A DNA stretch of 60,476 nucleotides from Nitriliruptorales bacterium. Lineage in GTDB: Bacteria; Actinomycetota; Nitriliruptoria; Nitriliruptorales; JAHWKO01. Shown here piece after piece: positions 1 to 4,280 of this stretch. The translations under genes were made by a program, and so were the position numbers. The stretch covers positions 1 to 60,476 of the forward strand of contig JBHELG010000050.1 in the NCBI GenBank assembly GCA_046263195.1, in the 5' to 3' direction. Under the pieces are notes generated by a model, which worked only from the letters and a program-made list of their open reading frames with translations, searched no databases and was not told the DNA's origin. Numbering within the stretch: position 1 is the stretch's first letter; each line of letters begins with the position of its first letter.

Positions 1-118
1 GATCATCGGCGGTGGTGCGGAAACGTCGACCGATCCAGATGAGTCGTCCCTCTTGATCGGCCAAACTCGCCTGGTGCGCAGCGCGACACGCGACATCGAT
101 GCCCAGACGTAACTGCAC
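1..118 (-). CDS. IS110-family transposase (DEDD/RuvC-like recombinase), 5' part, runs off the window edge
   Basis: Not in the ORF track. Manual translation from GTG at 118: MQLRLGIDVACRAAHQASLADQEGRLIWIGRRFRTTADD..., with the IS110 N-terminal GIDVA motif (first catalytic Asp). SD AAGGAAGGAGG immediately upstream. Confidence 0.88.
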   Translation of the reverse strand, partial: MQLRLGIDVACRAAHQASLADQEGRLIWIGRRFRTTADD

Positions 119-149
119 AAACCCTCCTTCCTTTCGACGACTACCCACT

Positions 150-400
150 GGCCAGCGTGGACGTCACCGCGGTGGGGAGGGTCGTTCCGGACATTCACTA
201 ATAGGGATCCGAGCCCAGCTCACGCTGACTCGGTCACCGGGTTCCCAACAGGACGCACCGCCTCCCCGGCGGTGACCCCACCCACCCCGTGATCAACAGG
301 CAAGGAGTCGCGTCGCGCTCCGGTCGGTCAAGCAACGGCGGCGGGTGGGCGCCGGTCCCTCTGATCCTCGTCTCGTCGGCCGCCTGATCCACGGATTCGG
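150..400 (-). ncRNA. Candidate IS110 bridge RNA (target-binding domain 277-349, donor-binding domain 163-276)
   Basis: Stem 335-349/277-290 encloses two 13-nt loop strands and hairpin 304-321. Stem 269-276/163-170 encloses a GUGA-tetraloop hairpin and the strand UGAAUGUC (190-197), which is complementary to the junction 416-423. RNA ends are approximate. Confidence 0.72.
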
Positions 401-420
401 AGGGCTCACTGAGTTTGAAT

Positions 421-1086
421 GTCGGTGACCACCGCGATCGGTGCGGGCGCCTCGCCGATGACGAAGTCGTCGGCGTTGACGACGTCCATCCAGCCTCGGT
501 CGGCGCGGAGATCATCGAGGTCGAGGACCCGTTCGGCCTCGACCACCGCACGCCGCAGGCAGGCGAGCGCGTCCTGACCGCGGCTGGTTGGGGTGACGGT
601 GGTGGCCAGACAGTATTTGCTCGCGTAGTCGATAACGGCGCAGATCCGCCAGATCCCGCCGCGGGCGGTCTCGAACTCGCTGAAGTCCATCTGCCAGACC
701 CGGTTCCGCTGCCTTGGCGGGTCACGGAACACCCGCTTACGAAGCCGCGACCACGACCTGCGGTCGGCGCGGAACCCGGACGGCAGCAGCAGCCCGCGGC
801 GACGCAGCGCCCGTTCCACGGTCGACGTCGACACCTCATAGCCGTCGGCACGCATCATCGCGGCGATCTTGCGGTGCCCCCACGCCGGCCAGTCCGCCGC
901 GTACTTGGCTGCGATCGCCTCGACCGCGTCGGTCTTCGGCGCCGGCCACGGGCCTTTGGCCGGGGCACCGGCACGGTGCCGGGCAAGCCGACGCCAGTAC
1001 GTCCGTTCCGGGATCCCGGCCAGTAGTGCGAACCTCGACACCGACACTCGACGTGTCGCTCTCAGGGCCTCGAGGTGGGCGAAGGG
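421..1086 (-). pseudogene. IS3-family transposase OrfB, truncated after the second catalytic Asp
   Basis: WGHRKIAAMMR, VERALRRRGL, PRQRNRVWQMDFSEF, VIDYASKY and ...VVTD, then out-of-family IQTQ-stop. The NG and the catalytic Glu region are absent. Confidence 0.85.
1032..1086 (-). promoter_or_regulatory. Candidate -1 programmed frameshift signal (C_CCT plus stem-loop)
   Basis: C_CCT at 1086-1083 in the orfA frame, 6-nt spacer, then stem ACCTCGA...TCGAGGT (1076-1032) with an inner GACAC/GTGTC hairpin. Confidence 0.55.
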
Positions 1087-1409
1087 ACGGAGTCGGTGTA
1101 CTCCGAGCCCTTCTGCCAGATCCGCAACTGCACCGTCGCCTCCGCCAGGGCGAGCTTCAGCTGCTCGCACTCGGTGCGCAACCGCCGCTCGGTCTGCGAC
1201 TGCCCACCATCTGGGCCCGGCAACGAACGGTCCATCCCAGCCCTGCCCGCATCCACAAACCGGTCCCGCCAGTTCCCCACCGTCGCCGAGGTCACCCCAT
1301 GCCGGCGTGCTGCCTCGGCCAGCGACAGCTCGCCCCTCAACACAGCGAGGACCACCTGGATCTGCTCGTCCACCTGCACCTGCCGGGACGGTTTGCGCTG
1401 TCTGCTCAC
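1062..1409 (-). CDS. IS3-family transposase OrfA (HTH)
   Basis: VLAVLRGELSLAEAARRHGVTSATVGNWRDRF HTH plus a coiled-coil tail; overlaps orfB in the -1 frame. Confidence 0.85.
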   Translation of the reverse strand: MSRQRKPSRQVQVDEQIQVVLAVLRGELSLAEAARRHGVTSATVGNWRDRFVDAGRAGMDRSLPGPDGGQSQTERRLRTECEQLKLALAEATVQLRIWQKGSEYTDSVPSPTSRP

Positions 1410-1787: not shown

Positions 1788-3923
1788 TTATGCCAGTACG
1801 CGTTCCAGCGGTCGATCGAAGTGGCGGTGCGCCGCGATGGCATCGGCAAAGGACGCCGCGAACGATTCGAGGAGTTCCGCGTTGTCGTCACCGACGGTCA
1901 CGACTCCCGCCTCGGCGATGACGCCGTCGGAGCTTCGCGCCAACCTGGCACCCGGGAGCTGGAGCTGGGAGAGCAGTTCTACCCCGGCTCCGATCGCCCC
2001 GATCGGTTTGGCATGCTTATACGCCTCCACCAGGTAGTTCGCGGCCGCCCCGTGAGCCATGATTGTCTCAACGCTCTCTTTGCCGCCCGCCGCCAACACC
2101 GCGTCATAGAGCACCGACGACATGGTGGCGACATGGCGGTCAACCTGAACCTCACCGTCAGTGGAGCGCAACGACCCGTCGTGGGGGGCGACGACCTCGC
2201 AGGTCACCCCCCGGTCGCGCAGAGCAGCACAGACCGTCTCCAGCGATCGATGGTCGACGCCGTCAGCGGCCAGGATCGCCACCTTGCGCGTCGCCGGGCT
2301 GCGCGGCTGGTTGTCCTGGCTGAGCGCGGGCGAGCTGCGGCCGTGGTTGGGACGTCCTGGCTCGGGTGGCTCAACGCCGATCCCCTCGGCGACCGCCGCG
2401 GCGAGCTCGTGATCGACTTCTTTGAGGTGTCCGACCATGCGCTCGCGGATGTGGTGGTGGGAGACCTTGCCGAGCTCAAAGTGGAAGGCGCTGATGATGT
2501 GCTGCCTTTCCCAGTCGGACATCGAGTTCCAGAACAGGGTGGCCTGGCTGTAGTGATCCTCGAAGCTCTTGCTGCGCCGGCGCACCTTTTGCCCGTCGAC
2601 GCGCTCCGTGTAGTGGCGGAACGCCCCTTCTTCGGGCGATGCCACGCGTGGGTAGTTGTCCGACAATGAGTTCGGGGAGAAGTTCGTGCGCGACTGGTTG
2701 ATCCGATGTTGGCCATAGCCGTCGCGCTGGTCGTGATGCACCGCCGCTATCGGTCGGTTCACCGGCAGCTGCGCGAAGTTCGGCCCCCCGAGGCGGATCA
2801 GCTGGGTGTCGAGATAAGAGAACAGGCGGGCTTGCAGCAACGGGTCGTTGGTGAAGTCGATACCTGGGACGATGTTGGCGACGTGCATTGCGACCTGCTC
2901 GGTCTCGGCGAAGAAGTCGTCCACGTTGCGGTCCAGAACCATTCTGCCGATGGGGCGCAGCGGCACCTGTTCCTCGGGGATGATCTTGGTGGGGTCGAGC
3001 AGGTCGAAGTCGAACGCGTCCTCGTCCTCCTCCGCGACGAGCTGCACGTTCAGCTCGTACTCGGGGGAGTTGCCGGCCTCGATCGCCTCCCAAAGGTCCA
3101 TACGGTTGAAGTCGATGTTCTTGCCGGCGATTTTTTGTGCCTCGTCCCACACGAGTGAGTGCGCGCCGAGCATGGGCCGCCAATGGAACTTGACGAACGT
3201 TCCGCGGCCCTCCGCGTTGACGAACCGGAAGGTGTGTACCCCGAAGCCGTCCATCATCCGGAAACTGCGAGGCACCGCGCGTGGGGAGGTCACCCACATG
3301 AGCATGTGCGTGGACTCGGGCTGCAACGAGAAGAAGTCCCACGCGTTGTCGTGAGCCGCCGCCGCCTGCGGGATCTCGTTGTGCGGCTCGGGCTTCACGG
3401 CATGGACGAGGTCGGGGAACTTGATCCCGTCCTGAATGAAGAAGACGGGGATGTTGTTGCCCACCAGATCCCAGTTGCCCTCGCGAGTGTAGAACTTGGT
3501 GGCGAAGCCGCGGACGTCGCGCACCGTGTCCGGTGACCCCCGCGACCCCACTACGGTGGAAAAGCGCACGAACACGGGCGTGCGGAGTCCGGCCTCGCTG
3601 AAAAGGTCGGCGCGCGTGATGTCGGCGAGGGACTCGTAGGCTTCGAAGAAGCCGTAGACACCGAAGCCACGCGCGTGGACGACGCGCTCGGGTATCCGCT
3701 CATGATCGAAGCGGGTCATCTTCTCGCGGAAGTGGAAATCCTCGATCAGGGTCGGACCACGCTCACCGACCTTCAAAGAGTCGTCCGTGTGATCCACCTT
3801 GATTCCCTGATCGGTCGTCAGGTGAGTGCCCTCGTGGGACACACGGTGCTCGTCGAGCTGGTCCTGCTTCTCGTCTCGGCGCTCGGAAGGTCGCTTCGAC
3901 GGTGACGCGTCTGCTGCACTCAC
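1788..3923 (-). CDS. katE: Large-subunit catalase HPII with C-terminal DJ-1/PfpI-like domain
   Basis: FDHERIPERVVHARG, RFSTV, LVGNN, RLFSYLDTQ heme-ligand motif, EAYKHAKPIG. Start placed at GTG 3923 after GGGAG. Confidence 0.95.
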   Translation of the reverse strand: MSAADASPSKRPSERRDEKQDQLDEHRVSHEGTHLTTDQGIKVDHTDDSLKVGERGPTLIEDFHFREKMTRFDHERIPERVVHARGFGVYGFFEAYESLADITRADLFSEAGLRTPVFVRFSTVVGSRGSPDTVRDVRGFATKFYTREGNWDLVGNNIPVFFIQDGIKFPDLVHAVKPEPHNEIPQAAAAHDNAWDFFSLQPESTHMLMWVTSPRAVPRSFRMMDGFGVHTFRFVNAEGRGTFVKFHWRPMLGAHSLVWDEAQKIAGKNIDFNRMDLWEAIEAGNSPEYELNVQLVAEEDEDAFDFDLLDPTKIIPEEQVPLRPIGRMVLDRNVDDFFAETEQVAMHVANIVPGIDFTNDPLLQARLFSYLDTQLIRLGGPNFAQLPVNRPIAAVHHDQRDGYGQHRINQSRTNFSPNSLSDNYPRVASPEEGAFRHYTERVDGQKVRRRSKSFEDHYSQATLFWNSMSDWERQHIISAFHFELGKVSHHHIRERMVGHLKEVDHELAAAVAEGIGVEPPEPGRPNHGRSSPALSQDNQPRSPATRKVAILAADGVDHRSLETVCAALRDRGVTCEVVAPHDGSLRSTDGEVQVDRHVATMSSVLYDAVLAAGGKESVETIMAHGAAANYLVEAYKHAKPIGAIGAGVELLSQLQLPGARLARSSDGVIAEAGVVTVGDDNAELLESFAASFADAIAAHRHFDRPLERVLA

Positions 3924-4280
3924 GGCCCGCACTCCCCTGCTGCTCGAGTCAGTTTCACTGAAAGCCTTCCACATGGTCACGACACCAACCGGACAGCTCA
4001 CCGCCGAATGTCCGCCAACCTCCTCCTGAAAGGGGGGGCGGGGTCGGGACGGGTGCTGTCGCAGACCCAAAGGGCACTAGCGAGGGAAACGGTGGGGTAC
4101 GAACGGCGTGTTGCTCTGACACGGCTGCGTCGAAAGCGACAACGCCAAGGTGGTCGACCCAGGGAGGACAGAAGTTCCCGGGACCGTAGTTTCAGCGGCC
4201 TGGCCGGGGTTCGGTTCCGGCGTTCCTCTCGGGACACGAGACCATGTAGTAGGTGGCGTGCGCTGAGGCGCTCGCTGTTC

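Follow-up and report, generated by a model that had tools for sequence, protein, structure and literature searches.

The first 60476 bases of contig C50 (JBHELG010000050.1), from the 2.88-Mb, 157-contig assembly GCA_046263195.1 of a bacterium of the order Nitriliruptorales, open in the middle of an insertion sequence (IS) of the IS110 family. This whole stretch is referred to below as the window. The IS110 element very probably carries a bridge RNA aimed at the xTDNG codons of transposases with an rve catalytic domain, and has very probably been inserted scarlessly into such a gene, that of an IS3-like element. The insertion point would lie between ...GTC ACC GA on the left and, as predicted, AC GGN on the right. 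In general terms, the target would be the DNA that encodes xTDNG around the second catalytic Asp of rve transposases, which include those of the IS481, IS3, ISNCY and IS30 families and others. A first-pass annotation of the window had proposed a bridge RNA and a target of this kind, and the comparison with relatives presented here upholds most of that proposal, relocates the core dinucleotide and narrows what can be said about the purpose of the guide.

The truncated element and its host gene

Read on the minus strand from 430 to 1, the window passes from the end of a transposase open reading frame (ORF) through 303 nucleotides (nt) without a credible ORF to a ribosome-binding site and a GTG-started ORF that leaves the contig. 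Judged by its sequence, window 1–421 (minus strand) is the left part of an IS110-family (bridge recombinase) element that is cut by the contig start. The features of the element and of the gene that it interrupts are as follows.

1..118, minus strand: IS110-family (DEDD) transposase, first 39 codons, with the GTG start at 118–116, from the ORF list
122..131, minus strand: ribosome-binding site GGAAGGAGGG, 3 nt ahead of the GTG, with a GGAG-rich block at the same place in relatives
119..421, minus strand: left end (LE), non-coding, one copy of the core included, with an nhmmer profile match at 421–124
412..417, minus strand: -10-like hexamer CAAACT, which in a circle would be 17 nt from the TTGACA of the right end
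420..421, minus strand: core dinucleotide CA at the left junction, spanning Asp codon position 3 and Asn codon position 1
422..429, minus strand: left target (LT) GTCACCGA, the codons Val-Thr and the GA of the Asp codon in the host transposase
421..1080, minus strand: truncated orfB (rve/DDE catalytic domain) of an IS3-like element, cut directly after the Asp of ...VVTD, by homology the second catalytic Asp
1062..1409, minus strand: orfA (helix-turn-helix part) of the same IS3-like element, matching positions 3–85 of the NCBIfam IS3 profile (E 5.5e-9)

The transposase ORF begins MQLRLGIDVACRAAHQASLAD... and runs off the contig start. Its 49-amino-acid (aa) ORF piece shares 69–92% identity with the N-termini of the full-length proteins that rank best, which are about 446–506 aa long and contain PF01548 and PF02371. 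The 39-codon fragment is too short for a domain match of its own, and both domains are seen in the full-length relatives, the C-terminal part being off the contig. A profile built from 74 left ends matches the window at 421–124 (nhmmer, E 6.5e-57), and the closest relative, locus L085, is 84.7% identical over 424 aligned nt, with junctions that read HTD|NGSEF. In addition, the layout between core (421) and GTG (118), with its 303 non-coding nt, is that of IS110 elements, and terminal inverted repeats are absent, as the ends of the relatives, CATTCAA... and ...GGAACTCA, are not mutual inverted repeats. Every defining feature of IS110 elements that can be tested here is present.

The interrupted ORF ends in the codons ...GCG GTG GTC ACC GAC (IAVVTD), the last of which closes at 421, and then reads into the IS sequence as IQTQ*. 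Its last 110 residues match the Pfam domain rve (E 6.5e-9, profile positions 2–76 of 102), and the 220 residues ahead of the break match the NCBIfam profiles for IS3 (E 8.6e-22, positions 95–285 of 369) and IS481 (E 1.3e-16), both under the curated cut-offs because the gene is truncated. The fragment stops at the second D of the D, D(xTDNG), E triad, and the E part is missing. We take the Asp of TDNG to be the second catalytic residue, following the textbook account of retroviral integrases. In an intact target gene (L174), the blocks WQsDfTH, TDNG and GKVER align with those of the deltaretroviral integrases 7pel and 7ouf (PDB; E 2.5e-5). As the insertion splits the DDE triad, the host transposase should be inactivated.

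The missing part of the element was sought in the rest of the assembly. Only residues 1–37 of the full-length relative P0006 were found there by tblastn, a right-end profile gave nothing credible (nhmmer, best E 6), no contig of the assembly begins with a matching rve C-terminus, and blastn with window 1–430 and 400–1500 revealed no further copy among the 157 contigs. Contig C85 (1–330) was considered as the continuation; it starts in a C-terminal piece of an IS3-type orfB (...GDSYDNALAES...) of a different subtype from the one expected, and it was rejected because, by our reading, this subtype differs from that of the nearest homologues of the window's host gene. A DNA search of 61 genomes (the window genome and 60 relatives) with positions 1–430 returned, outside the window genome, only three short matches at chance level, and the exact 40-nt pattern of the window's target-binding loop had no match in metagenome contigs. 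The IS3-like element is adjoined by an ORF of 760 aa (1788–4070, minus strand), which by its motifs presumably resembles a large-subunit catalase.

Insertion junctions of relatives and the core dinucleotide

Relatives of the element were collected by their transposases. After an alignment of 21 full-length relatives, a scan for transposase similarity in one genome per prokaryote species gave 399 candidates, 306 of which encode a relative, and the best 80 were taken (L005–L084). A scan of metagenome contigs with the close relative P0001 confirmed 380 stretches, and here too the best 80 were taken (L085–L164). Hosts in the genome scan span many genera of Actinomycetota, together with Dehalococcoidia, Limnocylindria, Coriobacteriia and other metagenome-assembled genomes (MAGs). 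Since the loci were picked by the transposase alone, their flanks provide an unbiased read-out of the insertion sites. Left ends begin with (C/T)A followed by TTCAA, TTCAT or TTTAG, and right ends follow the pattern ...TTGACA-N13-CA. Within the genome set, neither junction was located in L045 and L049, and L007 has 3 nt past its right end. The flanks were translated separately and never joined.

The junctions of these relatives fall on one protein motif. Left flanks of the genome set end in TD in 37 cases and in SD in 12 of 73 (72 loci and the window), right flanks start with NG in 50 of 63, and where both sides are readable the insertion is xD|NG in 44 of 58 (TD|NG 30, SD|NG 9, AD|NG 4, KD|NG 1). 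The metagenome set gives TD in 48 and SD in 17 of 70 left flanks, NG in 66 of 70 right flanks, and xD|NG in 55 of the 61 insertions readable on both sides (TD|NG 37, SD|NG 16, KD|NG 2). Pooled, the 109 loci with at least 20 nt on each side reduce to 104 distinct flank pairs, with xD|NG in 87 and [TS]D|NG in 82. TD|NG-type junctions thus recur among homologues, as the first-pass annotation had expected. Furthermore, of 53 right-flank pieces of at least 40 aa, 37 match rve_3, 13 rve_2 and 5 rve in Pfam, and of 52 left-flank pieces, 35 match rve and 11 rva_4; the same left-flank pieces have overlapping NCBIfam matches to IS481 (33), IS3 (18), ISNCY (13), IS30 (1), IS6 (1) and IS21 (1). Together with the alignment of TDNG to the integrase structures, these domain matches sustain the earlier identification of the target as the xTDNG of rve transposases.

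It is conceivable that the nesting arose only once, when an ancestral IS110 element entered one rve transposon and the composite then spread. Some of the loci are in fact the same insertion found in several samples, as the reduction from 109 loci to 104 flank pairs indicates. The host genes, on the other hand, are diverse: clustering of the 70 right-flank peptides that come from xD|NG insertions and reach 60 aa or more yields 58 groups at 70% identity and 23 at 50%, left-flank translations are 9–47% identical to that of the window, and several IS families are represented. In one genome, the same IS also lies in two unrelated transposase genes, one of which has empty copies as well, and the guides covary with the flanks. 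A single ancestral nesting is therefore very improbable, and the cluster diversity of the right-flank peptides is taken to exclude it. The database gene call P0070 (661 aa, 17 members), which combines rve with PF01548 and PF02371, reads ...LPASMLTD|IQTGCV..., with the same junction and an unrelated rve domain. Architectures of this type are probably nested insertions that were fused by gene callers, not real fusions.

The genome with two occupied genes is a complete Kribbella genome with exactly two copies of the element, L035 and L036, each in a transposase gene unrelated to that of the other. Two additional copies of the L035 host gene, 99% identical to it, lack the element (L167, L168), so that empty and occupied sites can be compared.

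Empty copies L167 and L168: ...ACGTTGACCGA-TA-ACGGCATGG... (STLTDNGMVY)
Occupied copy L035, left junction: ...TTGACCGA-TA-ttcaat...
Occupied copy L035, right junction: ...ggaact-CA-ACGGCATGG...

The 40 nt rightward of the empty sites are identical to the right flank of L035, and the comparison demonstrates scarless insertion at a core of 2 nt. The left junction retains the core of the target (TA in L035, from a GAT codon for Asp), while the right junction carries the donor CA. For L036, no second copy of the left flank was found in its genome. Among the relatives, only C+A is common to both junctions, with YA on the left and CA on the right at nearly every locus listed. A T (GAT Asp) opens the core in 15 of 113 unique left junctions, L035, L016, L021, L040, L044 and L086 among them, and the right junction keeps CA. 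These T/A left junctions and the empty TA site of L035 imply that a C/T mismatch at the first core position is tolerated. From the shared junction bases and the empty site, the core is CA (ACCGA-CA-ACGG), which replaces the AC core assigned at first.

Several loci show junctions of other kinds. In L039 (positions 2680–2700 and 4409), the left flank already reads ...CTCACCGACAACGG ahead of the CA core and the right flank starts with ACGG again, so that either the element went in one step downstream of an already complete TDNG, or a small segment was duplicated. The same element is found with mixed flanks in L030, L149 and L153 as compared with L150 and L152: on the left, the flank is shikimate-dehydrogenase-like (...MLQKD) or rve (...SMLSD), and on the right it is rve (NGMVFTTR) or unrelated. 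Copies may have recombined, or the element may have entered a site matched by one guide only, comparable to the 'half-match' in the available portion of a recent study (10.64898/2026.08.31.748434).

A sister clade (L054, L057, L066, L068, L069, L071, L074–L078, L080 and L084) has left ends CATTTAGG or CATCTAGG and different guides. Its sites, ...GGGTGTGA-CA (or CTGAGA-CA, GTGCGA-CA), lie outside rve genes; a 'GCD' reading recurs at the end of the left flanks, and the right flanks have no relation to one another. Two further loci with changed guides, L082 and L083 from Mycobacterium MAGs, lie in IS6-family genes at YLN|NRAEN, with left junctions at L082:2740 and L083:203 and right junctions at L082:4436 and L083:1899 (Pfam DDE_Tnp_IS240; NCBIfam IS6, E 2.5e-34). 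We take this site to be next to the catalytic Glu of IS6 transposases.

The bridge RNA and its guides

An RNAalifold consensus of 69 distinct relatives contains five helices, namely the outer stem, the target-loop stem in two parts, the hairpin inside the target loop and the hairpin of the donor loop. Its parts in the window, including the left and right target guides (LTG, RTG) and the left and right donor guides (LDG, RDG), are listed here.

187..355, minus strand: bridge RNA core, with the outer stem 355–352 (CCGG) paired to 190–187 (CCGG); RNAalifold, helix 1 paired in 98.9% of cells
335..349, minus strand: 5' arm of the target-loop stem, CCCACCCGCCGCCGT, which pairs with 290–277; helices 2 and 3 with compensatory changes in 12 of 12 pairs
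277..290, minus strand: 3' arm of the target-loop stem, ACGGGGTGGGTGGG, from the RNAalifold consensus and the pair counts
322..334, minus strand: 5' strand of the target-binding loop, UGCUUGACCGACC, with the LTG UUGACCGAC at 331–323
304..321, minus strand: hairpin inside the target-binding loop (GGAGCGC...GCGACUCC); helix 4 paired in 100% of cells, compensatory changes in 2 of 4 pairs
291..303, minus strand: 3' strand of the target-binding loop, UUGCCUGUUGAUC, with the RTG CCUGUUG at 300–294
256..275, minus strand: short inter-loop hairpin (UCACCGCC GGGGA GGCGGUG), weak, from the single-sequence fold and missing from the RNAalifold consensus
239..255, minus strand: 5' strand of the donor-binding loop, with the LDG GUUGGGAAC at 249–241
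204..238, minus strand: hairpin inside the donor-binding loop; helix 5 paired in 95.3% of cells, compensatory changes in 6 of 9 pairs
191..203, minus strand: 3' strand of the donor-binding loop, with the RDG UGAAUG at 197–192

The stem (349–335 with 290–277), the loop strands (334–322 and 303–291) and the hairpin (321–304) of the first-pass annotation all keep their coordinates on the minus strand. Over the 29 pairs and 69 sequences, 96.8% of 1995 cells hold standard pairs, in comparison to 84.9% in shuffles and 40.2–54.6% when the partner strand is slid. Compensatory changes are found in 20 of the 29 pairs, changes on both sides in 268 cells (72 in shuffles, 28–61 with slid partners), and the covariation score is attained by none of 500 shuffles. 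Kinship alone can lift related sequences over shuffles in such RNAalifold-based pair counts even where there is no structure, a caveat that the slid-partner controls answer. A putative two-loop bridge RNA of the IS110 type, as first proposed, is thus supported by covariation among the 69 relatives and not by the single sequence, and all four guides can be placed in the window.

According to the available text of the study that defines the four guides, the LTG is the sense of the left target and the RTG is complementary to the right target (Durrant et al., 2024; PMC11208160). Direct reading confirms that the window LTG UUGACCGAC (331–323) is identical to the flank GTCACCGAC (429–421) at 7 of 9 positions, that is, at 6 of the 8 positions of the LT and at the C of the core, and that CCUGUUG stands at 300–294. 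Across 113 unique pairs, the LTG agrees with its own left flank at a mean of 6.16 of 9 positions (5.17 ± 0.10 when permuted, with 0 of 10000 permutations as high); for the genome set alone the mean is 6.15 (4.81 ± 0.15 when permuted). Agreement is near complete at the first and second codon positions (92, 101, 111 and 109 of 113). Elements that have been retargeted likewise match their own flanks. In L059, the guide GATTCCGAC equals its own flank at 9 of 9 positions; L027 has the guide GAGCGA and the flank CAGCGAC (AGC-Ser); and the guides of L066, L076 and L084 fully match their own, quite different flanks over 7–8 nt.

The right target guide behaves similarly. The window RTG CCUGUUG is complementary to CAAC(G)GG with one G:U pair, and a right guide CC(Y)RTTG occurs in 123 of 145 elements. 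Among the 107 of these with a readable right junction, the junction continues as CAACGG in 90 and as CAATGG in 11 (101/107). Elements with another RTG mostly have other right flanks, with a match of 4–5 nt in L057 (CAGC), L075 (CAGA), L080 (CAGG) and L072 (CAAGC), and with no match to the right flank in L069 and L078. The LTG permutations and this RTG class bear out the guide–target covariation that had been proposed as a check.

The donor guides refer to the ends of the element itself. The window LDG GUUGGGAAC resembles the right ends of relatives, GTTAGGAAC/ATTGGGAAC, and across the relatives the LDG (GUURGGAAC) agrees with its own right end at 7.39 of 9 positions (6.82 ± 0.11 when permuted; 0 of 5000 as high). 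The right end of L085 is ...ATTGGGAACT-CA, and the window LDG predicts a right end ...TTGGGAACT-CA for the window copy, as in L085. If it resembles its relatives in size, the whole element would measure some 1.7–1.9 kb. The window RDG UGAAUG (197–192) is complementary to its own left end CATTCA (421–416), and variants of the RDG covary with the left end, AGAUG with CATCT and AAAUG with CATTT.

These observations are compatible with a mechanism of the IS621 kind. The 5' strand of the target loop, UUGACCGAC, reads as the sequence of (L/V)-T-D codons, the 3' strand CCUGUUG is complementary to CA-ACGG, the end of the Asp codon and Asn-Gly, and the donor-loop guides correspond to the two ends of the element itself, ..TTRGGAACT on the right and CATTCA.. 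on the left. As in IS621, an excised circle would recombine at the CA core with a site that is read by both target guides. The expected cognate target would be TGACCGACAACGG / TTGACCGACAACGG, with a TA core in the variant that has GAT. By analogy, the element would be active in recombination, and its circle junction may form a promoter composed of a -35 box, a 17-nt spacer and a -10-like box. The right ends of relatives contain TTGACA in 129 of 139 cases, a TTGAC-type hexamer ends 15 nt ahead of the core end in 136 of 139, and the corresponding hexamers of the left ends are CAAGCT, CAATCT, CAAACT and similar (TT-CAAnCT). A -35 box at the junction of right end and left end is described for IS621 in the available text of PMC11208160. 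Furthermore, the IS110 element is always co-oriented with its host gene.

Proposed target niche, rival explanations and known systems

Several results weigh against a guided insertion at transposase codons, or at least limit it. The transposase body, the right end and the right flank of the window copy were not found in the assembly by blastn, tblastn or nhmmer. As this right part is absent, the right flank AAC-GGN of the first-pass annotation stands confirmed in the relatives only (NG in 50/63 and 66/70 right flanks), and AACGG is a prediction for the window copy. Among the 104 distinct insertions, 17 are not xD|NG; they include the sister clade, the two insertions in IS6-family genes, and chimeric or look-alike sites. 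The window LTG mismatches its own flank at 2 of 9 positions, and over the 113 pairs agreement is poor where the LTG faces the third bases of codons (56, 74 and 47 of 113). Good agreement at first and second positions combined with poor agreement at third positions is, however, the pattern expected of a guide that follows a protein motif. The match between the reverse complement of the RDG and the LE is weak (4.84/7, with 4.53 ± 0.10 when permuted and 13 of 5000 permutations as high). The window sequence by itself folds with a minimum free energy z-score of -0.64, 48 of 200 shuffles folding equally well, and an Rfam scan to E 10 gave chance-level matches only, none near a gathering score. Lastly, the Kribbella genome has seven perfect 13-nt sites (one for a reversed-pattern control), three in IS481-like genes and four in unrelated ORFs, and all seven are unoccupied; differences in the survival of insertions may contribute to the enrichment in transposases.

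The single-sequence fold and the lack of an Rfam family match might indicate that the loops are no functional guide RNA at all, and that the 7/9 match and the stems arose by chance in a GC-rich leader. This is scarcely credible in view of the 20 compensated pairs among 29, a covariation score reached in 0/500 shuffles, slid controls that are only 40–55% paired, and the agreement of all four guide segments with their expected DNA partners across relatives.

A more serious alternative accepts the same element and the same guide. It holds that the 13-nt word TGACCGAYAACGG is common in high-GC genomes and that insertions in transposase genes merely survive, as these are harmless and multicopy. It agrees with the four perfect sites, of seven in one complete genome, that lie in unrelated ORFs, and with a few insertions at look-alike sites outside rve genes, namely L014 (GGTGACCGA-CA-ACAGCC), L011 and L016. 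Sublineages with changed guides, in contrast, still sit in catalytic motifs, at DSD|NG with a TCC guide (L059), at SD|NG with an AGC guide (L027) and in IS6 genes (L082, L083), and chance retargeting is not expected to land on transposases again; in addition, 82 of the 104 distinct events are [TS]D|NG. Mere survival is thus rather unlikely as the whole explanation. Because retargeted sublineages again sit in transposase motifs, we infer that transposase genes are a selected niche of guided insertion.

The occurrence of perfect sites in unrelated genes means that what is recognized are nucleotides. The statement that the RNA is 'programmed against transposases' accordingly holds as a reading of its evolution, and the guide itself recognizes DNA and not protein. 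The window genome has two ACCGAYAACGG sites, about the chance expectation, none of them in a transposase, and its contig C107 has one intact rve gene with CTGACGGAC|AATGGC, at two mismatches. One perfect site in an unrelated ORF, G061:C1:7498644 (L180), is a candidate histidine-kinase-like sequence, LTVTDNGTGI, by reading of its translation.

A far-reaching extension of guided insertion at catalytic codons can be envisaged and is possible, if on balance doubtful. The elements would form a widespread lineage of obligate 'transposons of transposons', with a guide tuned to the invariant DDE codons and tolerant of wobble mismatches, that colonises unrelated IS families across phyla. They would exploit the host IS by read-through transcription, to which the co-orientation would contribute, and by in-trans mobilisation through intact copies, would lower the load of active DDE transposons, and would have been retargeted repeatedly, to TDNG, to SDNG with different Ser codons and to the IS6 motif around the catalytic Glu.

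Inteins, homing endonucleases and group I and II introns also home into conserved active-site codons, and they splice out, so that the host gene stays functional. The likeness is that the landing site, available across hosts, consists of the codons that vary least in a widespread protein family. Unlike these, the IS110 element described here has no evident way to restore the transposase, and recognition is by a guide RNA.

The closest known system is IS621 of the IS110 family (Durrant et al., 2024, PMC11208160, as far as its available text goes; Hiraizumi et al., 2024, PMC11208158). Both have a non-coding RNA upstream of a DEDD transposase with two internal loops, whose 5' strands are the sense of the left DNA half and whose 3' strands are complementary to the right half, and both insert scarlessly at a core of 2 nt and have a -35 box in the right end. 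The core is CA here and CT in IS621, and the natural target is the protein-coding xTDNG of rve transposases, whereas IS621 targets repetitive extragenic palindromic (REP) elements. The transposases are also long here (446–506 aa among those read), the RTG appears longer, at 6–7 nt with a G:U pair or a bulged U, the LTG has no match to the second core base, and the outer stem encloses both loops.

Other elements with DEDD transposases insert site-specifically into mobile elements as well. As related in papers that cite the original work, IS1383 targets the inverted repeats of IS1384, and IS4321/IS5075 target those of Tn21. By these second-hand accounts their sites are non-coding terminal repeats of one transposon or family, whereas in the present case a catalytic motif within an ORF is the site, several IS families are affected and the gene is broken. 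In the IS1111 family with its seekRNA, the choice of a repeated, dispensable target (attC, REP) is likewise RNA-guided, and natural retargeting takes place through replacement of guide segments, according to the accessible part of Siddiquee et al. (2024; PMC11187229). IS1111-type elements differ by a non-coding region downstream of tnp, subterminal inverted repeats, a reversed guide order and non-coding targets.

The rve/TDNG target class was not found in a search of the full-text literature, supplements and ISfinder being outside its scope, and the motif could already be among the target motifs that PMC11208160 lists by guide bin in its Supplementary Data 2. In the available portions of PMC11208160, PMC11187229, 10.64898/2026.08.14.744561, 10.1101/2024.06.21.599552, PMC2516522, 10.64898/2026.08.31.748434 and PMC12859917, no rve or TDNG targets are mentioned. 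What appears new is the kind of target, conserved catalytic codons inside a transposase gene that are common to several IS families, with disruption of the gene; the mechanism would be that of IS621.

Bridge recombinases are under development as programmable tools for genome writing, and little has been written about their natural guide targets beyond REP elements, attC sites and transposon ends. The clade described here, present in named genomes of Actinomycetota and in MAGs of Chloroflexota and others, aims at active-site codons that selection keeps constant in competing transposons. If confirmed, it would supply bridge systems from nature whose core is CA and whose right guide is longer, to be compared with IS621, and it would account for 'fused' rve-IS110 gene calls and for broken IS481 and IS3 genes in annotations. 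Furthermore, it would demonstrate that a short guide can track a protein motif across families through tolerance of third-position mismatches, and it would be a clear instance of conflict or parasitism among mobile elements that is guided by RNA.

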